Assembly: GCA_965223265.1 (NCBI GenBank)
Contig: OZ244999.1
Location: forward strand, 6,784,001-6,848,000
From: Planctomycetota bacterium
Lineage (GTDB): Bacteria; Planctomycetota; UBA8108; SXIK01
Length of the DNA stretch: 64,000 nucleotides
Direction: 5' to 3'
Part shown: piece after piece, positions 2,964 to 64,000 of the stretch
Layout of the letters: each line of letters opens with the position of its first letter
Position numbering within the stretch: position 1 is the stretch's first letter
Program-made: the position numbers and the translations under genes
The notes under the pieces: generated by a model
What the model saw: only the letters and a program-made list of their open reading frames with translations
Databases searched by the model: none
Told to the model about the DNA's origin: nothing

Positions 2964-2990
2964 ACTTGCAGGCAGAAAGAAGTTGATTCC

Positions 2991-40214: not shown

Positions 40215-40322
40215 GAATCCTACCGCAGCCCCGGCTGGAAATCGACGCCCCCGACGCCGCTACGCGCGACGCCGGTGTCTTCAGGAGTCTCGAGCCGTCA
40301 ACCGAGTTTAACCTTAACTTAA

Positions 40323-40576
40323 CCTCGAGTTTGGCGATTTCGCGCCGGCCTGGCCGGACGAGTTTCGCGGGAATTCAAAGGCCCTTTCAACTTTTTAGTA
40401 CCCTGAGAACCCTTGTGCATGTTCAAAAACTCCTGTCCGGCCCTTCGGGGAACGCCAGGAGCGCCGATGCCTGCGCCCGTCCTCCGCCACGACCCGAGCG
40501 GGATCGCGCCCGAGTCGCTCCTTGGCCTCGACGCTCCTGGCGCTGGCAGGCTCGACGCGAAATGGCCAAACTCGAG
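40323..40576. mobile_element. MITE family A, copy 1 (254 bp, intergenic)
   Basis: Terminal inverted repeats CTCGAGTTTGGC(G/C)ATTTCGCG; TTAA duplication at 40319-40322 and 40577-40580; differs from the copy at 53125-53378 by 4 substitutions. Confidence 0.9.
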
Positions 40577-40580
40577 TTAA

Positions 40581-46434: not shown

Positions 46435-46476
46435 AGAGTCTCCATCCGCCAACGAAGCTCAACACCGACAGCACGC

Positions 46477-48117: not shown

Positions 48118-48228
48118 TCGTCCGCATCAGACGATGGATCCGGCGGCAGCCGTCTCGCGACCCTTGGAGGCGCGCAGCGGCTCGAGCCGAGGCTTGCGCT
48201 CCGGGCTCGCCTCACGGATGATTCGGGC

Positions 48229-48972
48229 ATGGACGCCGCCCCGCATTCGCCCGAGCTGCGCATCTCCGCTGTCGTTCCAACCTGGAACGAAGCCGAGAAT
48301 GTCGCTCGGTCCCTGACGAGCCTGCGTCGCGCCGGGATCGACGAGATCGTCGTCGTTGACGGCCACAGCACCGACGACACGGTCACGGTCGCGACGCCGC
48401 TGGCCGACCGCGTGCTCCTCAGCAGTTTGAACCTATTCACGCAGCTCAATCGCGGCGCCGCGGCCGCGAGCGGCGACGTATTGCTCTTCCACTACGCAGA
48501 TGGCGACTTCCCCCCGGGCGGACGCACTGCAATCCTGCGCACTCTCGCTCGCGGCGACGCGGTCCGCGATGGTCGTCACGACGTCGTTGGCGGTGCCTTT
48601 CGGCTCAGCTTCCGATCGCGGCACGCGTTCTACCGCTTCATCGCCGTGACCGCCAACGCGCGCAACCGACTCCGGCTCGGCCCGTTCGGCGACCAGTCGA
48701 TTTTCGTGCGTCGACAAACTTTCGAAGTCGTCTCTGGGTTTTCGGTCGACCGCTACCTGCCCGATCTACAGTTCGTACAGGCGCTCAGGCGTCTCGGCCA
48801 CTTCGCACTCTTGGAGGACCCTGTCGTGACGTCGGACCGTCGCTGGGAGAGCCGCGGGCGTACGCGCACCCTCTTCAACCACTGGTGGCTGACCGGCCTC
48901 TACGTCCTCGGCAAGCGCCGCGCTGGCAGCCGCGCCGAGAAGAAGTCGTCGCGGCTGCGCACCGTCCGCTAA
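48229..48972 (+). CDS. Family 2 glycosyltransferase (TIGR04283-like)
   Basis: VVPTWNEA, VVVDGHSTD, QLNRGAAAASGDVLLF, FGDQSIF, TSDRRW. Confidence 0.87.
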   Translation: MDAAPHSPELRISAVVPTWNEAENVARSLTSLRRAGIDEIVVVDGHSTDDTVTVATPLADRVLLSSLNLFTQLNRGAAAASGDVLLFHYADGDFPPGGRTAILRTLARGDAVRDGRHDVVGGAFRLSFRSRHAFYRFIAVTANARNRLRLGPFGDQSIFVRRQTFEVVSGFSVDRYLPDLQFVQALRRLGHFALLEDPVVTSDRRWESRGRTRTLFNHWWLTGLYVLGKRRAGSRAEKKSSRLRTVR

Positions 48973-49074
48973 CAGCCCGCTTGAAGAAGTGCTTCGAGCC
49001 GAAAACCGGTCTCTTCGCGTCCAGATCGGCCGCGGCAAACGCTTTTCGGCCGAATGACTTTTTCAGGCGGGCTG
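48973..49074. mobile_element. MITE family B, short variant (102 bp)
   Basis: TIRs CAGCCCGCTTGAAGAAGT / ACTTTTTCAGGCGGGCTG; CTAA duplication at 48969-48972 and 49075-49078. Confidence 0.85.
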
Positions 49075-49204
49075 CTAACTGCGCGTTCGGTCCGCTCCGT
49101 CTCGAGTCTGGGGATAGCCGGAGCGCGGCAAAGCCACAGAGTGACGCGATCGAAGCGGGAATTCGTTCCGAACCCCACCGGCGGCGCGGTACACTCCTGT
49201 TGGT

Positions 49205-49223
49205 GTGTATGAATTTCACTCAC
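49205..49223. promoter_or_regulatory. 19-bp palindrome upstream of the kinase gene (candidate operator)
   Basis: GTGTATGAATTTCACTCAC = GTG-nn-TGAAwTTCA-nn-CAC; near-identical site at 54830. Confidence 0.55.
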
Positions 49224-49333
49224 CTCATGAGCCGATAGAGATTCCTAAGAGACTTCCTCGCCACGAGTTCTGGCTACGCCAGTTTCCAGTGCACAAGAGG
49301 AACACGGCGCCCCGCCACGGCGAAAGCTGAGAG

Positions 49334-51106
49334 ATGAACGACACCCTGCCACCCAGCCGACCGTTTTGGCACGACAGCACCGAGCCGACGTCAGGCCCGA
49401 GCGCCGCCGAGCGTGCGGATCCGGATTGGATTGGGCCCTATCAGGTCCTCGGTCGACTGGGTGAAGGCAGCATGGGTGTTGTCTTTCGCTGCCGCGACCT
49501 ATCGCTCCAGCGCGATGTCGCCGTCAAGGTCTTGAGACGACGTTTTGAGAGCGACGACCGCTACCGGCGACGATTTCGTCGCGAAGCCAAAGCAGCGGCG
49601 AGCCTGTCTCACGACTGCGTCGTGCGCATCTTCGGCATTCACGAAGGACACGGTAGCGATCCGTCCTATCTCGTCATGGAGCTCGTCGCCGGCGACTCTG
49701 CCGATCGACTCATCGAAGAGCGCGGCCGCATCGCCGCGGGCGAATCCGTCACCTGGATCCGGGACGCCGCGATCGGGCTCCGGGAGGCGTCGAAGCGCGG
49801 CTTGATTCACCGCGATGTGAAACCGTCCAACCTTCTGGTGACCCCCAGCGACCACGTCAAGATCGTCGACTTCGGTCTCGCCAAGGATGTCGAGGCGAGT
49901 CCGTCACTGACTGAAGAAGGGATGGTCTTAGGCACACCTCACTATATTTCTCCCGAGCAGGGCCAGGGAAAGAAAGTCGATCAGCGCAGCGACATCTATT
50001 CCCTCGGTGCAACGCTCTATCACCTTCTCACCGGCGAGACCCCGTTCGACGGCGAATCGTCGGTGTCGGTGATCGTGGCGCACGTGAACACGTCACCCCG
50101 ACCACCGCATCTCGTCGTGGATGACATTTCGCTGTCGCTCTCGCGGGTCGTCCTCCGCATGCTCGCCAAGAGTCCAGGGGATCGCTACCCGTCATACGAC
50201 GAGCTCATCGAAGATCTCGAGGCAATCCTGGGCGGCGAGGAGCCTCCTCACGCGGGGTCGCATAGCGCTGGCACGCAGACGCCTCGACGTCGCGGGCCAC
50301 TGATCGCTGGGATTGCTGCGGTCGCCCTCGTCGCCGTGGTCGGAGGCTTAAGCCTTGGCGGTGTCTTCCAACCGCCCGCAGCAGCGGTCCCCTCACTGAC
50401 GTCCAGTCTGGGATCATGGTGCGTGTCTCAGACCGGCCGCGACGTAGACCTCGACTTCAACTTCGCGGCACCGCCCCCTGTTGCGACGCGTTTCGAGTTG
50501 CTCCAACGCATCCTGACCTTACCGCGCGATCTTCCCAATGATGTCGACGCGCCAGGGCTCCGTTCCGGCAACCTTCATCTTGCCGACTTCACGGCGCCGC
50601 TGGCGTTTTCGTTCGCCTTTGAGCGACTGGACCACGTCGCCGTCGAGATCAACGCGGCGTCGGACGACTGTCACCTGCAAATTGCGCTCTCCCATCCCGC
50701 TGCAGCGAGTCATCGCCAACTGCTCATTCGCCTCGACCTCGAGCACCGAAGCGACGCCGCGACCATCGTGGCCATCAGAAACGGTGAAGAGATCGCTGGC
50801 GCGCGGGAATTGCGTACGCGGGATGGTCAGACAGTGAGTCGTTTGCCGAGAGTTGGCCAGCCGCCACTGCGATTGGAGGTGGACTTCGAAGCTGCTGACG
50901 GTGAAACGCAGGTCTTAGCCCGTGTGTTCAGACCCCAGCGCCCGGAGCCGCTGTTCGAAGTGAAGCGCGTCATCGAAGGTGACGACTGGGTCAAAGGCGT
51001 CCCAACGCTCAGGTGCGCATCGACGCGCGGGGCGTACTCATTGCGGATCAGTCGGGTTGCCCTGCGCGGTAGGATCGGCGACACCGTCGTCCATCAGGTC
51101 CCCTAA
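49334..51106 (+). CDS. Membrane-anchored Hanks-type Ser/Thr protein kinase
   Basis: LGEGSMGVV, VAVK, HRDVKPSN, DFG, GTPHYISPEQ, SDIYSLG; TM LIAGIAAVALVAVVGGL; beta-rich C-terminal domain. Confidence 0.95.
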   Translation: MNDTLPPSRPFWHDSTEPTSGPSAAERADPDWIGPYQVLGRLGEGSMGVVFRCRDLSLQRDVAVKVLRRRFESDDRYRRRFRREAKAAASLSHDCVVRIFGIHEGHGSDPSYLVMELVAGDSADRLIEERGRIAAGESVTWIRDAAIGLREASKRGLIHRDVKPSNLLVTPSDHVKIVDFGLAKDVEASPSLTEEGMVLGTPHYISPEQGQGKKVDQRSDIYSLGATLYHLLTGETPFDGESSVSVIVAHVNTSPRPPHLVVDDISLSLSRVVLRMLAKSPGDRYPSYDELIEDLEAILGGEEPPHAGSHSAGTQTPRRRGPLIAGIAAVALVAVVGGLSLGGVFQPPAAAVPSLTSSLGSWCVSQTGRDVDLDFNFAAPPPVATRFELLQRILTLPRDLPNDVDAPGLRSGNLHLADFTAPLAFSFAFERLDHVAVEINAASDDCHLQIALSHPAAASHRQLLIRLDLEHRSDAATIVAIRNGEEIAGARELRTRDGQTVSRLPRVGQPPLRLEVDFEAADGETQVLARVFRPQRPEPLFEVKRVIEGDDWVKGVPTLRCASTRGAYSLRISRVALRGRIGDTVVHQVP

Positions 51107-51141
51107 CGAGCGACGCTCCAAAACATTTGCGAAACTCCGCC

Positions 51142-53046
51142 ATGACGATCACGACCAAGACCGACCCGCCCCCTCCGACCGGAGCGAAGCTCTCCGTGTC
51201 ATGCGGACCAGACTTAGGCGCCGAGTTCGATCTCGACACCGAGTTCACGAGTCGGACAGTCACCGTCGGACGCGATGAGCACGCTGACATCACGCTCAAC
51301 GATCCCGCCGTCTCGCGCGAACACTTTCGACTTGAGAAAGCATCGCGGGCGTGGCGCGTTGTTGATCTCGGGAGCCGCAACCAGACGTTCCTCAACGGCC
51401 GTCCCGTCAGCGACATCGAGCTGGCGGGAGGCGATGTACTGCGAGTCGGCGATACCGAACTTCGGTTTCAAGACAGCGAGCGGCTGGGTGGCGGCTCGAC
51501 GATCATGAAACATGTCCAGCAGCCAACGGGACGCGAAACGTTCCTGGAGCGCATCGATCACGTTGAACGCATGCTCGAAGAAGAGAAGGCCAAACGCGCG
51601 CTCGATGAGGTGCGTCGGCTTTTCGAAGTCCATCAACGACTCGCGACAACCGCTTCTTCTGACGAACTCTTTCATCGGATTCTCGCCGAAGTGGTGCCGG
51701 TACTCAAAGCCGACTCCGCGGTCGTCGTCGTCAATCAGGGCGGCGACTGGAAGGTGCGAGCGAAGTATCCGGACGAGAGTAGTGAGAAAGTCTCGTTCAG
51801 CCGCTCGGTCGTCCAGCGAGTCGCGGACAGCGGCGAAGCACTGCTCCTCGAGCGCGCCGAAGACGAGGAGGAGCTGCGAAAGAAACAGAGCATCGTCTCG
51901 CAAGACATCACAACGATCCTCGCGCTGCCGCTGCGAACAGGCGGCGCCGTCCGCGCCGTGATCTACACGGATCGCCGCGGCTCCGATCAACCATTCCTCG
52001 ACTCTGACCTTGAACTACTAACGGCAGCGCTCGACTCGGTCGCGCCGTTCGTCGGGCGTCTGCTCGAGGGCGAGAAACTCAAAGTCGAGAACCGTCACCT
52101 CTTCGAAAGTATTGCCTCTGACAAGAAGATCATCGGGCGCTCGCCGGCCATCGAAGCGGTTCTCAGTTTCATCCGGCGCGCCGCGCCGACACCGATGACG
52201 GTGCTCATTCAGGGTGAGACCGGCACCGGGAAAGAGCTCGTGGCGGCCGCGATCCATTACGCTAGCCCGCGCCGAGGCCAACCGTTTGTCGCTCTCAACT
52301 GCGCCGCGATGCCCGAGCAGCTTGCCGAAAGCGAACTGTTCGGCCACGAGAAGGGATCGTTCACCGGTGCGGCGAGCCGCCGCAAGGGACGGTTTGAGCT
52401 CGCCCATGGCGGCACGATCTTCCTGGACGAAGTTGGAGAGCTCTCGCCCGCCTGCCAGGCTAAACTTCTTCGACTCCTCGAAGAAAGGTGCTTCGAGCGC
52501 GTGGGCGGCGCGGAATCAATCGAAGTCGACGTCCGCGTCGTCGCCGCGACCAACCGCGACCTGCTCGGTGCCGTCGATGAGGGCGAATTTCGCGAGGATC
52601 TTTACTATCGATTGAACGTGCTCAGCGTTGAGCTACCGCCACTGCGCCAGCGCAGCGAAGACATCCCACTCCTCGTCGAACACTTCCTGGCCATGTCCCA
52701 CGCACAGCACAAGAGTCTGAGCAAACGGGCAGAAGAAGCTCTGCGCTCATACAATTGGCCGGGTAACATCCGGGAGCTGCGAAACGTCATCGAAAGCGCG
52801 GTCGTTCTCGGCACGGGTAACGTGATCAAGCCCGAAGATCTCCTGCTCACCCGCAGCCGACCGCGAAAAGCTCAGGCGACGGCGGCGTGGGAACCGATCA
52901 GCTTACAGCAGCTTGAGAAGAGCCACATCGCTCGCGTTCTGGAACACACCGGCGGCAACAAAAAGCGCGCCGCCGAGATCCTCGGCATCGAACGCTGCAC
53001 TCTCTACGCCAAGATTAAGAACTACGACCTGAACGACGCCACATGA
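51142..53046 (+). CDS. Sigma54-dependent enhancer-binding protein with FHA and GAF domains
   Basis: FHA (VGR..VSREH..DLGSRNQTFLNG), GAF, AAA+ (GETGTGKE, ESELFGHEKGSFTGA, FLDEVGE, FREDLYYRL, WPGNIREL), Fis-type HTH. Confidence 0.95.
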   Translation: MTITTKTDPPPPTGAKLSVSCGPDLGAEFDLDTEFTSRTVTVGRDEHADITLNDPAVSREHFRLEKASRAWRVVDLGSRNQTFLNGRPVSDIELAGGDVLRVGDTELRFQDSERLGGGSTIMKHVQQPTGRETFLERIDHVERMLEEEKAKRALDEVRRLFEVHQRLATTASSDELFHRILAEVVPVLKADSAVVVVNQGGDWKVRAKYPDESSEKVSFSRSVVQRVADSGEALLLERAEDEEELRKKQSIVSQDITTILALPLRTGGAVRAVIYTDRRGSDQPFLDSDLELLTAALDSVAPFVGRLLEGEKLKVENRHLFESIASDKKIIGRSPAIEAVLSFIRRAAPTPMTVLIQGETGTGKELVAAAIHYASPRRGQPFVALNCAAMPEQLAESELFGHEKGSFTGAASRRKGRFELAHGGTIFLDEVGELSPACQAKLLRLLEERCFERVGGAESIEVDVRVVAATNRDLLGAVDEGEFREDLYYRLNVLSVELPPLRQRSEDIPLLVEHFLAMSHAQHKSLSKRAEEALRSYNWPGNIRELRNVIESAVVLGTGNVIKPEDLLLTRSRPRKAQATAAWEPISLQQLEKSHIARVLEHTGGNKKRAAEILGIERCTLYAKIKNYDLNDAT

Positions 53047-54473
53047 ACCCGCCGCCTGAGCTCCTCCCCCAACACTGCGAAAAAATCCGCCCGGTACGGA
53101 GACTCGGTGTGGTCGGCGCGCTAGCTCGAGTTTGGCCATTTCGCGTCGAGCCTGCCAGCGCCAGGAGCGTCGAGGCCAAGGAGCGACTCGGGCGCGATCC
53201 CGCTCGGGTCGTGGCGGAGGACGGGCGCAGGCATCGGCGCTCCTGGCGTTCCCCGAAGGGCCGGACAGGAGTTTTTGAACATGCACAAGGGTTCTCAGGG
53301 TACGAAAAAGTCGAAAGGGCCTTTGAATCCCCGCGAAACTCGTCCGGCCAGGCCGGCGCGAAATGGCCAAACTCGAGGCTAGCACGTCTGACGATTCTCT
53401 CGTGCGCAGCGGGCGCTCTCTGCCTCGTCACGAGTTTCGCTCACGCGGACGAAGCGATCACGCCGGTGCGAGAGGACGGCCGCGGCGAAGGAGAGGCAGT
53501 GAAGACCGAGCGCGGCGCTCCGGCGAACGTGTCGAAACGGACGACAGAACCGGGCGCGCCAGCCGCAAAGTTCGAGTCTGGAGTTGCCAACGACAAGGCA
53601 CCGAACCAAGGGCAGGGCAGACAGCGCCAGCCAAGACGAATCGACCTCAAGCCGCGCCAGCCGCTGGCGTCTCGCAAGCCTGGCGGTGCCAAGACCAAAG
53701 CCGACGCGCCGCCACCGGTGGCGAAGAAGCGCGCCGGTGGCTTGGGTCTCCCTCCACGCACGGTTTCTTTGCCGATGCAGGGGGTCTACCGAGCGGCCGA
53801 ACTGATCGCACTGGCCGCAAAACTTCAGGATCTACCGCTGCGCACATCGAACGAGCAACTCGGTGAGATCCGCATTGCCATTCTCCCAGACCTTGCTGGC
53901 GCCCGCATCACGCTCAGCGAACTGCGCGTGCTCCTGGCGGCGCATCGGATTTATTTGCTGGAAGTCGATGATCCACGCGGCGAGCGCTTTCTCGTCGCCA
54001 CCGACGATCCGCGGTGGCGACCACGCGCGCTGCGCCACACCTACGTGCTCGAGGTCTCCGACAGCAGGTTCGCGGAGACCGAAGCGGCGCTCGCAAAGCG
54101 AGTCGCGACCTATAACGCTCAGCGCCCGAAAGGCGAGTTACCGGCCGCGGTCGTTGGGGCACCGCGCATGGGGCGCATTCTTCTGCGCGCCGGTAGCGCG
54201 CAAGCGCTCGAAGAACTAGTCGCGGTCGCTGAAGAGCACACAGCAGTGCGTCTTGCGCCCGATCCAGATCGTCCGAAAATGTTCATCTACACGGGCCGGA
54301 ATCGGCGCATCGGTGAGCTCAAAGAGCACGTTCTTAAGGAGCTGAGCGAGGTCGAGCGCGCGCAGACGCGCTGCATCACCCGCGGCAACCGACTCCTGTT
54401 TCGCGCCGCCCCGAAACTCGGAGAGCGCATCTTGAGACTGCTGCGCGAAGCCGATGTTCGCGCCAGCCGGTAA
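53043..54473 (+). CDS. Exported protein resembling secretin periplasmic N-domains without a barrel; carries an in-frame MITE near the N-terminus
   Basis: ATGA overlap with the activator stop; signal peptide core LTILSCAAGALCLVTSFAHA; segments align by eye with N0, N2 and N3 of the adjacent GspD. Confidence 0.6.
   Translation: MNPPPELLPQHCEKIRPVRRLGVVGALARVWPFRVEPASARSVEAKERLGRDPARVVAEDGRRHRRSWRSPKGRTGVFEHAQGFSGYEKVERAFESPRNSSGQAGAKWPNSRLARLTILSCAAGALCLVTSFAHADEAITPVREDGRGEGEAVKTERGAPANVSKRTTEPGAPAAKFESGVANDKAPNQGQGRQRQPRRIDLKPRQPLASRKPGGAKTKADAPPPVAKKRAGGLGLPPRTVSLPMQGVYRAAELIALAAKLQDLPLRTSNEQLGEIRIAILPDLAGARITLSELRVLLAAHRIYLLEVDDPRGERFLVATDDPRWRPRALRHTYVLEVSDSRFAETEAALAKRVATYNAQRPKGELPAAVVGAPRMGRILLRAGSAQALEELVAVAEEHTAVRLAPDPDRPKMFIYTGRNRRIGELKEHVLKELSEVERAQTRCITRGNRLLFRAAPKLGERILRLLREADVRASR
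53125..53378. mobile_element. MITE family A, copy 2 (254 bp, intragenic, inverted relative to copy 1)
   Basis: TIRs CTCGAGTTTGGCCATTTCGCG / CGCGAAATGGCCAAACTCGAG; CTAG duplication at 53121-53124 and 53379-53382. Confidence 0.92.
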
Positions 54474-54829
54474 CCTCGCGTTCGCTCCCGGCGCGCCGGG
54501 CGGCTTCTCACGCGCAGCCCGTGCCGCCGAGCAGAGTACATCGAGGAATGATGGCTGGCGCACGGTTGAGTCTCCTGAAGCCAAAAGGGAGAGCGGTGCG
54601 CGAGGTGTGCAGGCGCTACCTCCTGAAGACCTCCAGAATGCGCCGCCGCCTTCGCACCAAGGAGCCGGATGGTGGCTTCAGGCGTTTCGATCCGTCGCGT
54701 CAAATCGGCCAAAGGAGTGCTACAGGAAGTGCCGAAGACTAGCCTGGATCTCGCCTCGAGGGGGGCCGTCTGCTGCTCTGCGTTCGGCTGTCGAGAGCGA
54801 AATCCAGCGGACGGGACCCGCCCCTTCTC

Positions 54830-54848
54830 GTGTATGAAATTCAAGCAC
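54830..54848. promoter_or_regulatory. 19-bp palindrome, candidate upstream activator sequence for the T2SS sigma54 promoter
   Basis: GTGTATGAAATTCAAGCAC, centred about 135 bp upstream of the -24 GG. Confidence 0.6.
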
Positions 54849-54971
54849 GAATGAGCTGCGATCAGGGGCGAATCACGAGGCTCTGAGGCGTTTCCTTGAG
54901 CCCTGAACGACGGCCATAACTTCAATCAATTAAAAGTGTTAAAAGTTTCCCCTGCACCCGCACCGCCGTCT

Positions 54972-54988
54972 TTGGCCCGGGGTTTGCT
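54972..54988 (+). promoter_or_regulatory. Sigma54 (-24/-12) promoter of the T2SS operon
   Basis: TTGGCCCGGGGTTTGCT: GG (54974-5)-N10-GC (54986-7), close to TGGCACG-N4-TTGCW; AT-rich tract at 54920-54948. Confidence 0.8.
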
Positions 54989-55124
54989 TGGCCGTACTGA
55001 AGCCGGCTCCCTGGCCCGCCGGCGGGGGCAGAACACTCAGACAATTCCCATCCGCGCCGAGCCGCGCCGGAACAACCCAGTTCATGATACCGCGCCGTCG
55101 CCGCTGCACGGTGAGGAGTCTCTA

Positions 55125-57833
55125 ATGCGTAACAGCCTGTTGAACAATGTCATTCGGCTGAGAAACCAGCCGGCTGAGAAAACCCGACGTTCGTCACCGT
55201 CGTCTCGTGGTTGGTGGCACCAAAGCGCGGTTCTCGCGCTGGTCGTCGCACTCGTGACCGCACCAGCAACGCGACTTCCCGCCCAGGCGCCAGGCGGAGA
55301 CGACACCGCGGGTGAGGCGCCACCACCACCACCGCCGCAACCAGACGGCGGCGAAGGAGGCATCGGTGCTCCCCCCGATGCCATCGGCGCAGGTGACGAG
55401 CTCATTACCGGTGCATTCCGAGCCGACGAGGTGATCGAGATCGACGATGGCGAGATCCCGGGCGCGGACTTCCTCAAATTCCTGTCGCACTACACCGGCC
55501 TACCGGTGCTCATCGACAGCAAGCAGCTCGCGAGCCTGACGACGATCAACATTGCGGCGCCGATCAGGCAGGCCGACGGCGAAATCGTCAAAGCGATCCT
55601 CGAGTCGAACGGCCTCAGCGTCACCGAACGCGTCTTGCCCAGCGGACGCTCGGTGATCCGCGTCGAAGGCGCAACGACAGGCGCGGCCGCCGCCCAGCGT
55701 GGACCCGAACCGAGCCCGATCATTGTCGTCACGGCGGACGAGCTTGGGGAACTTGCGAACGTTCCACGACCTGACGAAGTCGCGACGATGATCTTTCGCC
55801 TCCGACATCGCGAGCCAGCTGACGTCATCAAAGCTCTCGGCGACCTCGTCGGTGGCGGCGGCGGCGGCACGACGCCGGGGCGCGCAGCCACGCGTACGGG
55901 GCAGTACAGCCTGACGGAAGTTGAAGGCTCACCGGTCGTCGTCGTGAAGGCGAAGTTCGGCCTCCTCGATTTCTTTCACAAACTCGTCTACGAGATCATC
56001 GACCTGCCGGTGAGCGCTCCCGATCGGATCATCGAGATCGTCGACATCGAAAACGCCTATGCCGACGAACTCGTTCAGATCATCGAGACCTTCATTTTCG
56101 ATGGCCGCCGCTCCACGTCGAGCGTGCGCCGCACGGCCTCAACGCCTGCCTCTGGGACGGCCGCTCAGGGCGCGGCAGCGCGCGCACGACGCACGTCGAC
56201 GACGACGGAAGAGTACGAGACCAAGGTCATCGCGGAGCCGAGAACCAACAAGATCCTCATCGAGACCTACGACGAGCAGGATCTCCAAGACATCTTCATG
56301 CTCATTCGGGCTCTCGACATCCGCTACGAGCTCAGACGCCTCAAGACCTACATCTATCAAGTGCAGTATCTGAAAGCCGACGAAGTCGCCACGACGATTC
56401 AGAGTCTCGTTGGAGGTGCCGGATTCGGGGGCCGTACCGGAAGCAGCAGCCTCGGCCAGGCTCGCACCCGCGGCCTGTCACGAGGAGTTCAGCGACGCGG
56501 CCAGACAACGCGCACACCAACGCCAACGACGCAGACTCCGGGCACCGCAGGCGCCGCCTCGGCTGGCGCCCCGCTGATCGTGCCGCACATCGAGACGAAC
56601 TCGCTCATCATCCAGGCCGAGCCCGAAGACCGCGCCGAGGTGCTCAACATCCTCGAGCAGATCGACACCAAGCGGCGCCAGGTGTTCCTCGAGGCGGCGC
56701 TCGTGCAGGTGACGTCGGACAGCACGCTCAATTTTGTCATCGAGCTGCTCGCGGGCGAGCCGGACGATCGCTCGACGCGAGCCCTGTTCGAAACGTCGTT
56801 CGGCCTCAGCGGCCTAGACTTCGAAAACTTCAACCGCGCCATCCCAGATCTCTCCAATCCCGCCTCTGTGCCCAGGGGTGCGCTCGTCGCCATCATGAAC
56901 CGCGGCAAGTTCCCGGCGCTGATTCAGTTCTTCAAGACCAACACGGACAGCCAGGTCTTGGCGACGCCGTTCATTCTCGCCGACGACAACATGCCGAACG
57001 TGATCCAGATTCTGCAGACACAGTTCGTGCAGACGACCGCGTCGACCGCCGCCGGCCAGACGACATCACAGGAAGCCGAAGACGCCGGTATTATCCTGGA
57101 GATCACGCCGACGATCAGCTCGGAGAGCGCAGTCTTCCTTGAGATGAGCCTCGAAGTGTCGGAGTTCTCTGGCGCCCCGCCGGCGGCCGGTGTGCTGCCG
57201 CCCAAGCTGACGAACACGATCACTTCGGCGGTAACGATTCCAGATGGCGATCTCTTCGTCATCGGCGGTCTGACGCGCGAAAACAAATCGAAGAACGTCT
57301 CCAAAATCCCGATCCTCGGCGACATTCCTCTGCTCGGTAAGCTGTTTCGCTCCGAAGGCTCGGCAAAGAGCACGTCGAACCTCTACATCTTCCTTCGCGC
57401 GCACGTCCTCAGTCACCCTGAGTTCGAAGACCACAAGGAGCTGACACGAAACGCGGAGGATGAGGTCAGCAGGATTTCGAACGTCGAAAAGATCACCAAG
57501 TTCCCGGCGCCGAACGTGCCGCTGCCGCCACCGCCGGCGGTCGACCCGGACGCGCCGACTCGCTTCCAGCTCAACCCCGGCGGGGAGACTAGTTCGTCTC
57601 GCTACGACCCGGAGAGCGAACGACGCCGCTACGCGAACGACCCCGAGAGTCCTTTCGCATCAGGAGGTCTCAACGGAGCGGGCGCCGAACCTGTACCGCG
57701 CCTGCCGCTGACGACGGATCCGGCTACCGAGGAAGAGCTACTCATCGACCAGCAGAACCGAGCCTTGCGCGGCACCGGTGCCAGGGTCGACAAGACCGGA
57801 AAGAGTTGGATCGTGCCGATCGAGGCGAGATGA
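55125..57833 (+). CDS. gspD: Type II secretion system secretin
   Basis: N0-N3 domains, QVFLEAALVQV, VLATPFI, AGIILEITPTI, VIGGL, KIPILGDIPLLGKLFR, NLYIFLR; GAGGAG SD before ATG 55125. Confidence 0.93.
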   Translation: MRNSLLNNVIRLRNQPAEKTRRSSPSSRGWWHQSAVLALVVALVTAPATRLPAQAPGGDDTAGEAPPPPPPQPDGGEGGIGAPPDAIGAGDELITGAFRADEVIEIDDGEIPGADFLKFLSHYTGLPVLIDSKQLASLTTINIAAPIRQADGEIVKAILESNGLSVTERVLPSGRSVIRVEGATTGAAAAQRGPEPSPIIVVTADELGELANVPRPDEVATMIFRLRHREPADVIKALGDLVGGGGGGTTPGRAATRTGQYSLTEVEGSPVVVVKAKFGLLDFFHKLVYEIIDLPVSAPDRIIEIVDIENAYADELVQIIETFIFDGRRSTSSVRRTASTPASGTAAQGAAARARRTSTTTEEYETKVIAEPRTNKILIETYDEQDLQDIFMLIRALDIRYELRRLKTYIYQVQYLKADEVATTIQSLVGGAGFGGRTGSSSLGQARTRGLSRGVQRRGQTTRTPTPTTQTPGTAGAASAGAPLIVPHIETNSLIIQAEPEDRAEVLNILEQIDTKRRQVFLEAALVQVTSDSTLNFVIELLAGEPDDRSTRALFETSFGLSGLDFENFNRAIPDLSNPASVPRGALVAIMNRGKFPALIQFFKTNTDSQVLATPFILADDNMPNVIQILQTQFVQTTASTAAGQTTSQEAEDAGIILEITPTISSESAVFLEMSLEVSEFSGAPPAAGVLPPKLTNTITSAVTIPDGDLFVIGGLTRENKSKNVSKIPILGDIPLLGKLFRSEGSAKSTSNLYIFLRAHVLSHPEFEDHKELTRNAEDEVSRISNVEKITKFPAPNVPLPPPPAVDPDAPTRFQLNPGGETSSSRYDPESERRRYANDPESPFASGGLNGAGAEPVPRLPLTTDPATEEELLIDQQNRALRGTGARVDKTGKSWIVPIEAR

Positions 57834-57951
57834 GCTGGCTGCAATTCTGACGTAGAATAAACATGTTGATCGCGGCAGAGGGTTGACGCGAGGCTGGTAA
57901 TGGAGCGCTCCGCCCGTCCGCACTCGGACCGAATGGAACAGCGAACAATCG

Positions 57952-59652
57952 ATGAAACTGAGCGTCTTTGAACACCTCGTCGACGAAGGACTCATCGATC
58001 GCGAGCAGCTCGATGAGTGTCAGGCGATCGTCAGCGAAAGCGGCGAGCCGCTCGACCGTGTGCTGCGCGCGAAAGGGTTCGTTTCGGAGGCAGCACTCCT
58101 CGACGTCCTGAGTCGTGTCCTACGGCTCGAGCTGCGAGAGGATATCGAAGAGATCGAGGTACCGCGCGTCTTCGTCCAGCGGGTGCCGGCACAGTTCGCG
58201 CGCAACTACAATCTCGTGGGACTGTCACGCGACAATGGCACGTTCCACGTCGCCACGTGCGACCCGCTTGATATCCATCCGATGGACGAGCTCTCCAGCT
58301 TGCTCGAGGCCGACGTCGTCCCCGTGTTGTCACCGCGAGCGAAGATCACGTCTCTGATCAATCGCGCCTACCAGCGCTCTTCGACCGACGTCGACGAGCT
58401 GCTCGACGGCATCGAAGAAGATGACATGATCAGCCTGACGAAGATCGTCGACGAGTCTGAGGACGTCCTCGACATCGCGAACAAGCCGCCGATCATCAAG
58501 CTGATGAATACGATCCTCTTCGAGGCTCTGAAGATTCGCGCCAGCGACATCCATCTGCAGCCTTACGTGGATCGTCTCCAGGTACGCTACCGGATCGATG
58601 GCATTCTCTACGAAGCCAAGGTGATCCCGAAAAAGTTCCAAGACGCGATCATTTCGCGTGTCAAAGTGATGGGCAAAATGGACATCGCGGAGCGTCGACT
58701 GCCGCAAGACGGACGCACGACGATCAAGGTCGGCGACGGCGAGGTGGACGTGCGTATCTCTTCGGTGCCGACCTCCTCCGGCGAGCGCATCGTTTTTCGT
58801 CTGCTGGACAAGAGCGCCCGTCTCTACCGCTTGCACGAAATCGGACTCGGCGAAAGCAGCCTCGACTTGGTGCGCAATCTGATCAGCTATTCCCACGGAA
58901 TCGTTCTGATCACAGGCCCAACCGGAAGCGGCAAAACGACCACGCTCTACGCCGCGCTCGCTGAGATCAATTCCGAAGAAAAGAACGTCATCACGATCGA
59001 AGACCCAATCGAGTACAACATTGACGGCATCAGCCAGATTCAGGTTTCGAACAAGAAGGGCCTGACGTTCGCCTCGGGACTGCGCTCGCTCATGCGGCAG
59101 GACCCCGACGTCATGATGGTCGGTGAGATTCGAGACGGCGAGACCGCGAACATCGCCGTGCAGGCAGCGAACACCGGCCACCTCGTCTTCTCGACCTTGC
59201 ACACCAACGACTCCACCGGCGCGATTAGCCGTATGATCAACCTCGGCGTCGAGCCTTACCTCACAGCTTCGGCAGTGATCGGCGTCATCGCCCAGCGTCT
59301 CGTGCGCCTGATCTGTCCGCACTGCCGCGAGCCCTTCGAAGCGACCGACGCCCAGCTTGCTGAGCTTGGTGTCGAGCGTGGTCAGCTCGACAACAATCAG
59401 CTTTGGCGCGGCCATGGCTGCGAGCACTGTCTTGGTCGTGGACTCTTCGACCGGACCGCGATCTACGAAATCCTCGTCATCGATGAGGACGCACGCGACC
59501 AGATCATCTCCCGCACCAGCGCGTCGGTGATGAAGCAGTCTGCCGTACAGCGAGGCTTGCGGACGCTCCGCATGGACGGGGCGCAGCGGGTCGTCGAGGG
59601 CAAGACGACCATTGAAGAGGTGTTCCGCGTCACGCAGCTCGACGTTTTCTAA
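57952..59652 (+). CDS. gspE: Type II secretion system ATPase
   Basis: ASDIH, DIAERRLPQDG, GPTGSGKTTT, TIEDPIEY, RQDPDVMMVGEIRD, STLHTND, tetracysteine motif. Confidence 0.96.
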   Translation: MKLSVFEHLVDEGLIDREQLDECQAIVSESGEPLDRVLRAKGFVSEAALLDVLSRVLRLELREDIEEIEVPRVFVQRVPAQFARNYNLVGLSRDNGTFHVATCDPLDIHPMDELSSLLEADVVPVLSPRAKITSLINRAYQRSSTDVDELLDGIEEDDMISLTKIVDESEDVLDIANKPPIIKLMNTILFEALKIRASDIHLQPYVDRLQVRYRIDGILYEAKVIPKKFQDAIISRVKVMGKMDIAERRLPQDGRTTIKVGDGEVDVRISSVPTSSGERIVFRLLDKSARLYRLHEIGLGESSLDLVRNLISYSHGIVLITGPTGSGKTTTLYAALAEINSEEKNVITIEDPIEYNIDGISQIQVSNKKGLTFASGLRSLMRQDPDVMMVGEIRDGETANIAVQAANTGHLVFSTLHTNDSTGAISRMINLGVEPYLTASAVIGVIAQRLVRLICPHCREPFEATDAQLAELGVERGQLDNNQLWRGHGCEHCLGRGLFDRTAIYEILVIDEDARDQIISRTSASVMKQSAVQRGLRTLRMDGAQRVVEGKTTIEEVFRVTQLDVF

Positions 59653-59710
59653 GCCGATCGCCGCGGCGGTCGGCAACCACGGTCTTTTCGATTTCCATAG
59701 GCACACGGAC

Positions 59711-60952
59711 ATGCCCGTCTTCGAGTATCGCGCGCTCACCAAAAGTGGCAAAACGACGAAAGGCATCGTCGACGCCGACACCGCCAAGGCGGCGCGTGCG
59801 CAGCTGCGGACCAATAACGTCCACGTCACCGATATCCGCGCCCTCGCAGCGCGCAAAACGAAGGGGAAGGGTGATCAGGCCAACAAGAAAAAGAAGCTGC
59901 AGCTGGATCTGACGCTCGAGCGCGGCCTCAGCACCCGCGATCTCGCCACCTTCACGCGGCAGTTCTCGACGCTGCTGCGCAGCGGGATTCAGCTCGCCGA
60001 CGCACTGCGCGCTCTGGTCGAGCAGTGCGAACAGCGCCACTTCGAACAGATCCTCCGGAACGTCAAGGAGGAGATCACCGCTGGCAACAGTCTGGCCGAA
60101 TCGCTCGCGAAACACCCGCGCTATTTCTCGGACCTCTACGTCAACATGGTCCGCGCCGGCGAGGCGAGCGGCAACCTTGATCAGGTACTCGAGCAGCTAG
60201 CCGCGTATATTCAAAAACAAGCGAGCCTCAAGGGTAAGGTGGCCGCCGCCATCACCTATCCCGCGATCATGGTCGTCGTCGGGACGTTCGTCGTCATCTT
60301 TCTCATGACGTGGGTCGTGCCGCGGATCACACAGGTGCTGCAAGATCGCAATCAGCCGTTGCCGCTCGTCACCGAAACTCTCGTCGCCATTTCTGGTTTC
60401 TTGGTCGACTATTGGTGGATCCTGATCATTGGGGCTGCCAGCGTCTTTTTCTTCACCAAGGCGGTGCTAGCGACGGACGCGGGACGTCTGAAGTTCGACA
60501 CGGGGCTCCTACGCTTTCCTATCTTCGGACAGCTCTTCGCCAAGCAGGCGATCTCGCGCTTCGCAATGACTTTCTCTACGCTTCTCAAGAGCGGCCTTCC
60601 TGCCCTCGACGCACTCAAGATCGTCTCGCTCGTAGTCAACAATGCGCGGCTGACGCAAGTGATCAATGACATCCACGGGCGCATCCTCGAGGGTGCTGAC
60701 ATCGCTACGCCGATCAAGAGATCGAAGGTTTTTCCGCCCATGGTTGGATACATGGTGTCGGTCGGCGAGCAGAGCGGTCAGCTCGAAGAGATCCTCGATC
60801 GTCTCTCGGAGAGTTATGAGGAAGAGCTCGACTTCGCGATTCAGAAAGTTACCGCTTCGATCGAACCGATGATTATCATCGCACTGGCCGTCGTAGTAGG
60901 ATTCATCATTGCGGCTGTCCTCCTGCCGCTCCTCGATTTCTCAAACGTGTGA
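59711..60952 (+). CDS. gspF: Type II secretion system inner-membrane platform protein
   Basis: MPVFEYRAL, FTRQFSTLL, AGEASGNL, AITYP, VGEQSGQL, IEP..I..L. Confidence 0.96.
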   Translation: MPVFEYRALTKSGKTTKGIVDADTAKAARAQLRTNNVHVTDIRALAARKTKGKGDQANKKKKLQLDLTLERGLSTRDLATFTRQFSTLLRSGIQLADALRALVEQCEQRHFEQILRNVKEEITAGNSLAESLAKHPRYFSDLYVNMVRAGEASGNLDQVLEQLAAYIQKQASLKGKVAAAITYPAIMVVVGTFVVIFLMTWVVPRITQVLQDRNQPLPLVTETLVAISGFLVDYWWILIIGAASVFFFTKAVLATDAGRLKFDTGLLRFPIFGQLFAKQAISRFAMTFSTLLKSGLPALDALKIVSLVVNNARLTQVINDIHGRILEGADIATPIKRSKVFPPMVGYMVSVGEQSGQLEEILDRLSESYEEELDFAIQKVTASIEPMIIIALAVVVGFIIAAVLLPLLDFSNV

Positions 60953-61140
60953 GGTACCACAGCGTCGCCGCTCGATCGCGCCGGGCCGGGAGGCTCGAGC
61001 TCGAGAACGCGGCGGCGAGACACACGCCTCCGCGCGAGAGGCACCGAAGCGCGATGCAGGCCAGACGCAGAGACACGGAAAAGTAGAGACCAAAAGAACG
61101 ACAGAAGAGATTTCGCGAGACAAATCCAAGAGGGAGACAA

Positions 61141-61596
61141 ATGAACCAACTCACTTCACTACCTCGCGCGCTGCGACGAAAGCGAGCAGGACGCCCCGGT
61201 TTCACACTGCTCGAGCTCATTGTTGTGATCACGGTGATCGGTGTGCTCGCCAGCCTGGTCGTCATGAGGGTGTCAAACGTCGGCCCTCGGGCGCGGCGTA
61301 CGAAGATCGATTCCGACATGAAAACCGTGCTGCGCGTTGCCGAGGCCATCAAGGCCGAAACGGGACGCTATCCAGAGACCATCACCGATATGATCAACCC
61401 CACCGACGCCACCGGCGCGCCGCTGGCGGCGAGTCTCGACTCCGTGCCGCTCGACCCGTGGCAGCAGGAGTACATCTACGAAATCTACGACGGCCGGCCG
61501 TCGCTCCTCTGCCTGGGCTCGGACATGGCTGAGGGCGGCGAGGATGAGGCCCAGGATGTCAGATACCCGGAAGAAGATGACTTCGGCGGCTACTGA
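61141..61596 (+). CDS. gspG: Major pseudopilin
   Basis: GFTLLELIVV prepilin motif, GRYP, PLDPWQQEYIY, LGSD..EGGE...D. Confidence 0.92.
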   Translation: MNQLTSLPRALRRKRAGRPGFTLLELIVVITVIGVLASLVVMRVSNVGPRARRTKIDSDMKTVLRVAEAIKAETGRYPETITDMINPTDATGAPLAASLDSVPLDPWQQEYIYEIYDGRPSLLCLGSDMAEGGEDEAQDVRYPEEDDFGGY

Positions 61597-61705
61597 CAGG
61601 CCGCATCTTCGTGAAGTCGCCGCACTCGGTCGAACGCCGGCGCGAGTCGGCGATGGAGCCGGGTCGATCTTCCCGGATCGAATCGCCCGGATCGAACGAG
61701 ACCAA

Positions 61706-62329
61706 ATGGACCGCATGGCTGAAATGCAACGCCGCAGCACCACCGAGCCGTCCGCGCGGACGACCGTGACGAGGCCCTGGAGACGCCCGTCGTCGACAGC
61801 GGGGTTCACTTTTCTCGAGCTCGTCCTCGTCGTCGTCGTCATCGGCCTTCTTTTTTCCATCAGCATCATCTCCCTGCGCGGTATGGGTCCGAAGTATCGC
61901 TTGCGCTCGGCCGCCCGTCTCCTCGCCAGCGACATCGAACGCACGCGACTCTCCGCGATCTCGCGGCAGCAGTGGCTGGGCATTCGCTACGTCATCGACC
62001 CTCAAGGAAACAAAACCGTCCCCTACTATCAGGTGATTCCGCCACCGCCGGAGGACTATCCCGATCAACCACTCGAAGAGCGCCAGCTGCATTCCCCGCA
62101 GGAACTTCCAACCACAGTGCGCTTTCGCGAGATCCGTCTCGCCAACGGCCAGACGGCGTCGGGCGGCGACGTCAGTATTCTCTTCGCACCGCAAGGCAAC
62201 ACGGGCAGTCACATCGTCGTGCTTGAAGGCGCCGAGGATCGCGTCATGGCGATCAAAGTGAATTCGATCACCGGGCTGACAGATTTCTACGAGACCGATC
62301 TAGCGGACTTCCAACACTTCGAAGGTTAG
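61706..62329 (+). CDS. gspH: Minor pseudopilin, GspH-like (start uncertain)
   Basis: AGFTFLELVLVVVVIG, LRSAARLLASDI..R..AI, ILFAPQG; follows gspG. Confidence 0.8.
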   Translation: MDRMAEMQRRSTTEPSARTTVTRPWRRPSSTAGFTFLELVLVVVVIGLLFSISIISLRGMGPKYRLRSAARLLASDIERTRLSAISRQQWLGIRYVIDPQGNKTVPYYQVIPPPPEDYPDQPLEERQLHSPQELPTTVRFREIRLANGQTASGGDVSILFAPQGNTGSHIVVLEGAEDRVMAIKVNSITGLTDFYETDLADFQHFEG

Positions 62330-62335
62330 CAGCTG

Positions 62336-62887
62336 ATGCACTCCCTCTGCGATGCCCACAGCCATGTCAGAGCCGCACAAGCTGTTCGGAGCTCGGCGGG
62401 ATTCACACTGCTCGAGCTGATCGTCGCGATCACGATCCTCGCCAGTTTCATCCTCCCGCTTCTGGACATCCTCTCGAAGGCAAAGATTCGCACGACGATC
62501 GCGACGCAGGAGCGGCAGCTGCGGGACTTCGCGCACCGCAAGCTCTTCGACCGCATGCACTTTTACGAAGAAGAGGACAGCGGCGACTTCGCCGCGGAAG
62601 GGCGTGCCGAGTGGACGTGGGAGATTCTGCCCTTGCAGCTTGTCGGGCAGGGAGAGCAAGCGCTCTTGGAGTACACGATCGAGGTCTATACCCCGCAAAA
62701 GTTAGGTGGCCGCAGCGAGGAGCACGCCAGCGAGGAAGGTTCGGTCTATCGCTTCAGCGCCTGGACCTTCCCAGACCCCCAGTGGTACGACGAGCAGGAG
62801 CAGCTCAACGCCATGGGGTACGACTCGCTCCTCTACGGCAGCGCCACGGGCGCCGTAGGCGGTGGCTTGCCGCCGCTGCCCCGATAG
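62336..62887 (+). CDS. gspI: Minor pseudopilin, GspI-like
   Basis: AGFTLLELIVAITILA, SGDF...WTWE; operon position. Confidence 0.78.
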   Translation: MHSLCDAHSHVRAAQAVRSSAGFTLLELIVAITILASFILPLLDILSKAKIRTTIATQERQLRDFAHRKLFDRMHFYEEEDSGDFAAEGRAEWTWEILPLQLVGQGEQALLEYTIEVYTPQKLGGRSEEHASEEGSVYRFSAWTFPDPQWYDEQEQLNAMGYDSLLYGSATGAVGGGLPPLPR

Positions 62888-62923
62888 CGGCCGAGAGCGT
62901 CATGAGATGACGGAGACTGGACG

Positions 62924-64000
62924 ATGAACCCAACCCGAACAATCCACTGCAGGCCGGCCGCGATCGAGCAGGGAAAACGCAGGGCCGGCTGCAGCTGTCG
63001 GCTCAGCCCGCGACGCCTTGCGTCGCGGCACGGGTTCACGCTCGTTGAAGTCGTTTTGGCCATGACGCTCCTGGTTACGGTGCTCGCCGTGTCGTACAAC
63101 GTCATCGTCGACTGCCTCGAAACCGATCGTCAAATCGACAAAGTCGCCCTGCCAGAAAAAGTCGGGGAGGGCGTCATGATGCTCTTTCGACGCGACCTCG
63201 CGGGCGTCTACTTTCGCCAGCTCGGGCGTCGCATCTTTTTCATCTCTGACGGCGGGTCGCCGCCCAATTCGCGCGACGAGATGCGACTGATCACAACGGT
63301 TCCGCCGACGCCAATCGAAGAGCTCGAGGGTGGCGCGAACACTGTGTATCAAAGTCGGTCCCTTACGGGAGTCCACTACTTCCTGCGGGACAACCCGGAC
63401 GTCCAGGACGTGCGAGCGATGACACTGTTTCGCAAGGAAATCACCACCTTCGACCCGATCGCGCCACTCGATGCGCCGGGCGCCGCGTATGAAGTCTACG
63501 ACAAAGTGGCGTACTTGAACATCGAAGCGTTCGACGGCTTTCTGTGGACGCCCGAGTGGGATTCCGAAGTGCAAATCGCTGTCGAAGAAGAGGAACTGGC
63601 GTTTTACCAAGAGCAGCAGCAGGGTCAAATCGCGCGCGTCTCAGCTGCCCAGGCGCCAGTCGAGACGATCAACGCCGCGCCGGGAGTCGCGCCGACGGCG
63701 ACGACCGACCAGATTTCCCTGCCGTCAGCCGTACCTTCGGCTGTTCGCGTCGAGTTCGGGGTTTACGTTGGTCGCGGCAACACTGTCGAATTCGACAGTA
63801 ACGGCGAACCGATTTTGAAGGTCTACTCTGCCACCGTGCCGATCATCACCGCTCGCAGGATGTTCATCAGCGGCGGCGAAGACAGCGGCATGGGCGATGG
63901 CGGGAGCGGCAGTGGGGTCGAGTCATTCAACCGTACCGGCGGCGACGCGGGGGCCGCACCCGGAGGCAACGCGCCGACCGGCGGGCTCCCCGGAGGACGT
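62924..64000 (+). CDS. gspJ: Minor pseudopilin, GspJ-like (runs off the window; absent from the ORF track)
   Basis: ATG 62924; HGFTLVEVVLAMTLL, FRRDL, VHYFLR, W..EWDS, PSAVRV; no stop seen before 64000. Confidence 0.8.
   Translation, partial: MNPTRTIHCRPAAIEQGKRRAGCSCRLSPRRLASRHGFTLVEVVLAMTLLVTVLAVSYNVIVDCLETDRQIDKVALPEKVGEGVMMLFRRDLAGVYFRQLGRRIFFISDGGSPPNSRDEMRLITTVPPTPIEELEGGANTVYQSRSLTGVHYFLRDNPDVQDVRAMTLFRKEITTFDPIAPLDAPGAAYEVYDKVAYLNIEAFDGFLWTPEWDSEVQIAVEEEELAFYQEQQQGQIARVSAAQAPVETINAAPGVAPTATTDQISLPSAVPSAVRVEFGVYVGRGNTVEFDSNGEPILKVYSATVPIITARRMFISGGEDSGMGDGGSGSGVESFNRTGGDAGAAPGGNAPTGGLPGGR

Follow-up and report, generated by a model that had tools for sequence, protein, structure and literature searches.

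Genes and regulatory DNA at the locus

We analysed 64,000 nucleotides of a Planctomycetota bacterium (assembly GCA_965223265.1, contig OZ244999.1, positions 6,784,001 to 6,848,000 of the forward strand; this whole stretch is called the window, and all positions below refer to it unless stated otherwise). We focus on three closely spaced genes, encoding a membrane Ser/Thr kinase, a sigma-54 activator with an FHA domain and a protein made of secretin-like N-domains (the N-domain protein), which lie directly ahead of a type II secretion system (T2SS) operon and probably include its regulators. According to a Pfam scan, the + strand from 44872 to the window end carries two leuA-like genes, a GT2 glycosyltransferase gene, the Ser/Thr kinase gene, the activator gene, a third open reading frame (ORF) and the T2SS genes. 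An earlier interpretation of this DNA made from its letters alone (the sequence-only reading) had placed the three genes next to each other and upstream of a T2SS, and both Pfam and hhalign agree with it. The features that the argument needs are the following.

49166..49195, + strand: sigma-70-like promoter of the regulatory operon (-35 TTCCGA, 18-nt spacer, -10 TACACT at 49190-49195), read from the sequence and tentative
49205..49223: dyad 1, 19 bp, with its start 9 nt downstream of the -10 hexamer; operator proposed for autoregulation (strict genome-wide pattern match)
49334..51106, + strand: kinase gene; Hanks-type Ser/Thr kinase that crosses the membrane once, with an acidic Thr motif in its N-terminal tail and an orphan outer domain of 245 aa (Pkinase match, hydrophobic stretch by eye)
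51127..53046, + strand: activator gene; FHA-GAF-AAA+(sigma-54)-HTH_8 enhancer-binding protein, start at TTG 51127 or ATG 51142 (Pfam, alignment)
53043..54473, + strand: N-domain gene; barrel-less paralogue of the GspD N-terminal region, with an N0-like and two Secretin_N domains (profile comparison)
54830..54848: dyad 2, 19 bp; proposed upstream activating sequence for the activator (strict genome-wide pattern match)
54917..54955: AT-rich tract between dyad 2 and the promoter; G+C content 31% (genome, 61%)
54973..54988, + strand: sigma-54 -24/-12 promoter, TGGCCC-N5-TTGCT, predicted start near 54999 (pattern and conservation)
55125..57833, + strand: gspD secretin gene, 902 aa, Secretin and Secretin_N (Pfam, NCBIfam)

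In the window the ATG of the N-domain gene overlaps the stop codon of the activator gene (ATGA). The true start of gspD is ATG 55125, which is preceded by GGTGAGGAG, and not GTG 54936; given this start, the spacer between the N-domain gene and gspD is 651 bp.

The activator and the kinase

In Pfam the activator consists of FHA (residues 45-108), GAF (179-306), Sigma54_activat (335-501) and HTH_8 (593-633) domains, with E-values of 1.6e-72 for PF00158 and 1e-17 for PF00498. Its Walker motifs read GETGTGKE and FLDEVGE, and the GAFTGA-type loop reads GSFTGA. All 16 orthologues contain the FHA, Sigma54_activat and HTH_8 domains (GAF was detected in 12 of the 16), and the FHA columns G43, R44, S58, R59, H61, S78, N80 and T82 are invariant in the 16 proteins, as are the Walker motifs and the loop. 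We take the invariant FHA columns (Gly-Arg, Ser-x-x-His and Asn) to be the residues of the phosphothreonine pocket. Judged by its domains and motifs, the protein is both an AAA+ sigma-54 activator and an FHA-domain protein. The closest NCBIfam match is NifA (E 3e-117), with a score of 392.7 that stays under the cut-off of 528.85. The genome has two rpoN genes (Sigma54_DBD matches) with which such an activator could work. A Thr-rich stretch at the N-terminus of the activator was considered as a GarA-like self-inhibitory site and rejected, since the orthologues start about 19 residues later.

The kinase has a Pkinase domain at residues 36-285 (E 5e-47), in which the HRD (HRDxKPSN) and DFG columns are invariant among the 16 orthologues, and a single hydrophobic stretch at about 321-345 (judged by eye) that is followed by the 245-aa C-terminal domain. 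With HRD and DFG motifs, one membrane span (the span by eye) and an outer domain, it belongs to the receptor-type Hanks kinases. By sequence profile, the ectodomain matches neither a Pfam family nor a protein of solved structure, and a word-based homologue search with it returned the query alone. When 301 genomes sampled from the phylum were searched with the ectodomain profile, each of the 16 that belong to the class had a single matching gene and the other 285 had none. The weak language-model neighbours of the ectodomain include carbohydrate-enzyme accessory domains, PelX_N and 3keto-disac_hyd, with few shared features. The cytoplasmic N-tail of all 16 kinase orthologues carries an acidic Thr motif, either as D-[DE]-T-L-P-P at its extreme start or, deeper in the tail, as [DE]-[DE]-T-[RQ]-P-[LM], and this motif is a candidate docking phosphosite.

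We note that the genome also contains giant ORFs at G000:C1:4753765-4759269, 702777-708176 and 6324837-6330968 and seven further frames of 1599-1818 aa; ten long frames in all end in an AAA+ domain. The three giant ORFs that were scanned each combine, in one chain, a Ser/Thr kinase, a STAND/AAA_16 or NACHT-like module, TPR, GAF, sigma-54 AAA+ and HTH_8. Such single-chain fusions (kinase-GAF-Sigma54_activat-HTH_8) give Rosetta-stone support for the coupling of kinases to activators in this lineage.

Dyads and promoters

The strict form of the dyad, GTG-N2-TGAA-N-TTCA-N2-CAC, occurs in two copies only in the 9,179,496 bases of the genome, namely dyads 1 and 2, so the same palindrome does precede both the regulatory and the gsp unit, as the sequence-only reading had it. 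Shuffles of the window give 0.01 expected matches. Four near-matches elsewhere in the genome were dropped, as they lie inside ORFs without a convincing promoter nearby. The centre of dyad 2 is 135 bp before the GG of the -24 element. The succession of dyad 2, AT-rich tract (possibly a bend or an IHF-type site) and -24/-12 element is, as far as can be read from the sequence, the classical order of an enhancer-dependent promoter; both the promoter and the tract had been pointed out before, and the TGGCCC-N5-TTGCT element and the 31% G+C content support them. Dyad 1, which follows the -10 hexamer of the predicted sigma-70-like promoter, is in what would be a repressing position. A strict consensus scan found no sigma-70 site in the region upstream of the kinase gene; a counterpart of the proposed site, TTACGA-N18-TACACT, is kept upstream of the kinase gene in the related loci L023-L028 and L031.

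Conservation in related genomes

Twenty loci from related Planctomycetota were compared with the window: three families of its order supplied 12 of them, and two other families of the same class supplied 8. The kinase and activator genes are adjacent in all 20 loci, gspD comes next in 19 (the contig of the remaining one, L029, ends before gspD), and a profile search placed the N-domain gene between the activator gene and gspD in 18 of the 20. The linkage, whose conservation had been suggested as a check, therefore extends across genomes. The N-domain profile had no match at E<=1e-5 in two genomes (G021 and G032), though the kinase ectodomain is present in both. In one family (f2) the ORFs overlap, by 13 nt for kinase and activator and by 11 nt for activator and N-domain protein.

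The regulatory DNA is conserved as well. Upstream of gspD, a -24/-12 match with at most one mismatch was found in the window and in 19/19 loci that reach gspD, and a dyad with at most two mismatches to GTGTT-N9-AACAC in 16 of 20 upstream regions (window included); in L051 and L070, TGT-N11-ACA dyads were recognised by eye. In the relatives the dyad lies about 100-150 bp upstream of the -24 element, with its start about 120-150 bp before that element where measured, and the family-f2 loci have AT-rich stretches at the place of the window's tract.

Gene order may also be inherited without function. If so, the activator would act on other targets, and gspD would be transcribed with the help of another activator or by read-through. 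Within the order, leuA and GT2 are kept next to the locus too, so synteny at this level is weak evidence: the whole neighbourhood, including the two leuA-like genes, is syntenic there, and GT2 is again adjacent in G021 and G032. The many activators of the genome and the missing terminator between the two units (both described below) fit this explanation as well. Against it, five class-level loci keep the order from kinase to T2SS while leuA and GT2 were not found within the 20 kb fetched, the arrangement of dyad plus promoter is kept over five families while the intergenic sequence diverges, and the strict dyad is confined to its two sites in 9.18 Mb, the four near-matches being those within ORFs. 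We consider a functionless linkage very improbable.

The T2SS operon and its neighbours

Downstream of gspD the operon continues as follows.

57952..59652, + strand: gspE ATPase gene, N-terminal MshEN domain and T2SSE (Pfam, NCBIfam)
59612..60952, + strand: gspF platform protein gene, T2SSF, NCBIfam GspF above cut-off (Pfam, NCBIfam)
61141..61596, + strand: gspG major pseudopilin gene, T2SSG (Pfam, NCBIfam)
61544..64000, + strand: three minor pseudopilin-like genes, H-like 61544-62329, I-like 62336-62887 and J-like from 62924 to about 64021, past the window (N_methyl motifs; GspH/GspI/GspJ matches weak, below cut-offs)

The end of the J-like gene (about 64021) was read in the relative locus L068. 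Only GspF scores above its NCBIfam cut-off; GspE just misses it (627.6 vs 630.25), and GspD, G, H, I and J are under theirs. Because most Gsp matches fall under the NCBIfam cut-offs, we describe the cluster (GspD, E, F, G and minor pseudopilins) as a divergent T2SS-type system, a classification made on sequence matches. That no gspC precedes gspD had been noticed before, and the statement can be widened, as PF11356 (T2SSC) has no match above cut-off in the whole genome. A PilM/GspL-like gene, under the GspL cut-off, lies downstream on the minus strand. A search of 48000-64000 against Rfam gave no match at E<=1.

GspE carries an MshEN-type N-terminal domain at its residues 7-143 (window 57952-59652; Pfam E 2e-16), and its match to the motif for binding of cyclic di-GMP is slightly under the cut-off (35.8 vs 38 bits), which hints at a second-messenger control of the ATPase in addition to a transcriptional switch. 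Beyond the window end, as seen in L068, genes for two proteins with Kelch repeats (651 and 785 aa) and one with HEAT repeats come after the last pseudopilin gene, along with an ORF of 150 aa (L068 1562-7495, + strand). They are followed on the minus strand (L068 7774-13496) by a PilM/GspL-like gene of 638 aa and three ORFs that belong to no known family. All these neighbours are candidates for substrates or missing parts of the T2SS. At the other side, window positions 44872-48117 hold tandem LeuA/homocitrate-synthase-like paralogues (520 and 546 aa), which are found next to the kinase locus throughout the order. The genome has nine secretin-domain matches; one of them, at G000:C1:2246527-2247024, is within an open frame of 4537 codons, which would be an unusually large secretin-bearing protein.

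The N-domain protein is related to the N-terminal half of GspD

The third ORF of the regulatory operon (53043-54473; 476 codons) has no Pfam match at E<=0.01. We built two profiles for it, one from an alignment of 12 orthologues and the other from an enlarged family of 63 sequences. Among 1.84 billion proteins, the 12-sequence profile identified 465 representatives at E<=1e-3 and 60 at E<=1e-30. Eleven of the matches were scanned; they include five proteins of about 900-1200 residues with 8-16 tandem Secretin_N domains, one giant cadherin protein and two members of the N-domain family without a Pfam match. The long tandem proteins (P0084, P0117, P0124, P0139, P0140 and P0141; about 900-1200 residues with 8-16 Secretin_N domains) have no match to the secretin barrel at E<=0.01.

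Among PDB sequences, the 12-sequence profile matches GspD secretins only (4/4 matches, best E 8e-4), and secretins make up 11 of the 12 matches of the 63-sequence profile at E<=1. Secretin_N (PF03958) is detected in 47 of the 63 family members (best E 4.8e-17), which are 250-460 aa long. None of the 63 matches the secretin barrel (PF00263) at E<=0.1, and for this reason the third protein is not a secretin. No match to the Pfam N0 or STN model was seen among the 63 members at E<=0.1. In the decisive test, hhalign aligned the 63-sequence profile with the N-terminal halves of the 12 cognate GspD proteins at a probability of 97.4% (E 1e-11) over 226 collinear columns, with residues 131-204 of a 362-aa N-domain construct on GspD 107-180 (N0) and the next two domains on later Secretin_N domains. 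Its language-model neighbours are short proteins of Planctomycetota that carry Secretin_N and gspD_N0 (score 0.92), with an STN-bearing cluster among the weaker ones. At the level of sequence, the N-domain protein is a pore-less paralogue of the GspD N-terminal region, made up of an N0-like and two Secretin_N domains, and given this profile-profile alignment the earlier label "barrel-less secretin" is right at that level.

Both the N-domain protein and the kinase ectodomain are single-copy in the genome, and both were found within the same class only, save two marginal N-domain matches elsewhere. In one relative (G017, locus L032, ORF 1844-3220 on the minus strand), the N-domain ORF extends to 459 residues and has a second GspD N0-like segment, ahead of the secretin gene; this comes from a fusion or duplication, or else from a mistake in the assembly.

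A mobile element in the N-domain gene

The N-domain gene of the window contains a copy of a repeat that is short, non-coding, multicopy and bounded by terminal inverted repeats, and that we classify as a miniature inverted-repeat transposable element (MITE).

53120..53382: MITE-like repeat, 263 bp, inserted without a frameshift where the N-domain gene encodes its signal peptide (blastn, terminal inverted repeats)

It covers about residues 26-113 of the ORF, whose only in-frame start codons are at 53043, 53109 and 53211. Blastn gave 81 hits of this family in the genome, and 46 of these span 240 bp or more. The inverted ends measure about 26 bp, and most copies contain stop codons; a second copy in the window lies at 40320-40579 on the minus strand. 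One copy elsewhere is 100% identical to that in the N-domain gene, so the family seems to have been active recently. In short-read contigs from four runs of one sample, both MITE ends are entered and no contig skips the MITE.

Role of the N-domain protein

Whether the N-domain protein belongs to the machine or to its control can be argued from both sides. By analogy, its homology, the missing GspC and the precedents of GspDN1-3 and DotD would favour a part of the machine, while the fixed place of its gene in the operon of the regulators favours a regulatory role.

A purely structural protein could be an extra periplasmic ring, a substitute for GspC or a scaffold for the assembly of GspD, with the kinase sensing an unrelated outside cue, e.g. 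a polymer fragment, and inducing the secretion of degradative enzymes. Passages of PMC8134430 describe secretin N-domains that stack as rings and N0 as the docking site of GspC, which fits a protein of this composition in a genome without a GspC above cut-off. Known stand-alone N-domain proteins, GspDN1-3 (in passages of PMC8134430) and the N0-like DotD (PMC2951367), are machine parts. The weak ectodomain neighbours PelX_N and 3keto-disac_hyd and the Kelch- and HEAT-repeat proteins encoded directly downstream would suit a degradative role, although such language-model neighbours are leads only. This explanation leaves it unexplained that the gene is placed, and translationally coupled, with the regulators and not with the machine genes. 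We hold it to be a doubtful account, worth keeping in mind.

Alternatively, the N-domain protein and the outer domain of the kinase could jointly monitor secretin assembly or substrate load and feed this back to T2SS transcription through Thr phosphorylation. In such a trans-envelope checkpoint the N-domain protein, free or bound to GspD or cargo, would alter the activity of the ectodomain, the kinase would mark a Thr and the FHA domain would read the mark. In every locus examined the N-domain gene is in the operon of the regulators and not behind the sigma-54 promoter, its start overlaps the activator stop, and the protein shares with the ectodomain its single copy and, but for those two marginal matches, its restriction to the class. 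The STN-bearing cluster among the weaker language-model neighbours points the same way: N0 is a relative of STN, by which TonB-dependent transducers signal, and the secretin-related STN domain of FecA signals to FecR, which such a circuit would resemble. Speaking against it, G021 and G032 have the kinase ectodomain and no N-domain match at the threshold given above, and the N-domain gene is disrupted by the MITE here, yet the kinase, activator and T2SS frames are open. We regard joint sensing, whether as the full feedback circuit or in the particular form of the checkpoint, as unlikely.

Proposed model

Taking these results together, we think it probable, if far from certain, that the locus encodes a dedicated switch of the planctomycete T2SS operon, running from the kinase through the FHA domain to sigma-54, with self-repression in the window's order. 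A sigma-54 promoter is silent until an AAA+ activator remodels the polymerase. In the switch as we propose it, the gspD-E-F-G-pseudopilin operon would be read from the sigma-54 promoter, and the adjacent FHA-GAF-AAA+-HTH protein would be its activator. We infer that this protein binds the 19-bp dyad, (G/C)TGT-N11-ACA(C/G), about 100-150 bp upstream, with the AT-rich tract between as a possible bend. In the window's order the dyad also follows closely on the -10 of the sigma-70-like promoter ahead of the regulatory operon, and the activator therefore probably represses itself, like PspF and NtrC, both of which do so.

The output of the activator would be set by the presumably co-transcribed membrane Ser/Thr kinase, whose outer orphan domain may sense a periplasmic or external cue. 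The kinase would make phosphothreonine, with the acidic Thr motif of its own N-tail as the candidate site; the FHA domain would read this mark, and the GAF domain may supply a second input. The pore-less N-domain protein would be periplasmic and, in a system without GspC, would dock either to GspD at its periplasmic side or to the platform in the inner membrane.

Several observations weigh against the proposed switch or narrow it. Two concern how common its DNA elements are. The bare -24/-12 pattern is expected by chance 0.87 times per window, near chance level when taken alone, and what gives it weight is where it lies and that it is conserved; the loose dyad pattern is frequent as well (83 hits in 353 kb), so only position and a low mismatch count carry weight. 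Upstream of gspD the dyad is degenerate in L021 (3 mismatches) and ambiguous in L030. Upstream of the kinase gene it was found in the window, L021-L028 and L031 and in 0/8 class-level loci; as it is confined to the window's order, autoregulation would not be a feature of the whole class. Specificity is a further point: the genome has about 33 strong sigma-54 activator matches, at least three FHA-activators and 73 kinase-domain matches, so cross-talk is possible. No terminator-like site was found on the + strand between the regulatory and gsp units, so read-through into gspD is possible too.

The remaining points concern the N-domain protein. The window's own copy matches Secretin_N at an E-value of 0.076. 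The protein had been called exported, which holds for the orthologues, as these carry ordinary N-terminal signal peptides; in this genome the MITE divides what appears to be a single signal peptide, with the charged stretch before it and the hydrophobic core and AHA after it. With the MITE in the signal-peptide region, the gene does not simply encode an exported protein here, and its product may be poorly exported in the MITE-bearing strain.

Comparison with known systems

Dedicated regulators of T2SS operons are, to our knowledge, rarely defined, and we know of little work on secretion in planctomycetes. The locus is compact enough to be tested as a circuit, with a sensor kinase, a phospho-reading activator, an operator, a promoter and a target operon in an arrangement found class-wide. 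If the proposed switch is right, it would give the FHA-type sigma-54 activators a concrete cognate kinase and target, none of which we found described in the literature. The pore-less secretin paralogue defines a family for which Secretin_N is the only Pfam model that gives matches, and it may help to explain how the periplasm is bridged or monitored where GspC is absent; intact relatives offer a comparison for the natural variant disrupted by the MITE. Were the checkpoint true, the T2SS would be built or run only when the outer-membrane pore or the substrates call for it, and the feedback loop would join FecA/FecR-style N0 signalling, eukaryote-like phospho-signalling and sigma-54.

Full-text searches of the literature found no description of a kinase-FHA-sigma-54-T2SS circuit, as the sequence-only reading had supposed; one element of it is not new, since sigma-54 promoters ahead of T2SS genes have been predicted at the level of COGs, chiefly in Myxococcia and less so in Planctomycetia (passages of PMC12316311). 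That regulon prediction, in the passages concerned, stays at the COG level and comes without activator, kinase, operator or N-domain protein, and the words "FHA" and "secretin" occur 0 times in its main text (PMC12316311).

NifA-type activators share with the window's activator the core of GAF, AAA+ and Fis-type HTH, and in both cases a TGT...ACA dyad lies about 100-150 bp before the -24/-12 element. The upstream site of NifA is TGT-N10-ACA. The window's activator differs from NifA in scoring under the NifA cut-off, in its additional N-terminal FHA domain, in the N11 spacing of its dyad, and in that its proposed target is a secretion machine and not nif genes. The same fusion of FHA with a sigma-54 activator is present in the FHA-domain enhancer-binding proteins of Myxococcus xanthus, which Jelsbak, Givskov and Kaiser reportedly described in 2005 and whose input is said to come from Hanks-type kinases. 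We know of no cognate kinase, operator or T2SS target defined for these proteins, and our literature searches show none, whereas here kinase, operator and target operon lie side by side and are conserved together.

The Thr-phosphorylation pathway of the Pseudomonas aeruginosa H1 type VI secretion system (H1-T6SS), with PpkA, Fha1, PppA and TagQRST, acts post-translationally on the assembly of that system. It resembles the proposed switch in its set of parts, in that a secretion machine is gated by a membrane-bound Hanks kinase that has a periplasmic domain, together with an FHA protein and accessory proteins of the periplasm or outer membrane; here, in contrast, the FHA domain sits in a transcription activator, the machine is a T2SS and no phosphatase gene was seen in the locus. 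The sites of PspF overlap its own sigma-70 promoter and mediate autoregulation, and PspF itself has no sensory domain and is held by PspA. In the phage-shock (Psp) response, mislocalised secretins activate the sigma-54 activator PspF (PMC3041696 and PMC3069315). Under the proposed reading, the state of a secretin would likewise be coupled to a sigma-54 activator; the target of PspF, however, is the psp operon and not a secretion system, and no kinase takes part.

Stand-alone, barrel-less proteins of the secretin N-type that are encoded apart from the pore, as the window's N-domain protein is, are represented by GspDN1-3 of the mitochondrial T2SS (passages of PMC8134430) and Legionella DotD (PMC2951367). 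The mitochondrial proteins are stand-alone Secretin_N proteins, of which GspDN1 interacts with GspD in two-hybrid assays (passages of PMC8134430). According to the same passages, the mitochondrial GspD gene is split, its product lacking an N-region of its own and N0, whereas here GspD keeps its N-region and the N0-like paralogue is an extra protein encoded in the regulatory operon. The parts of the circuit that we propose are known, and our searches found no description of their combination.

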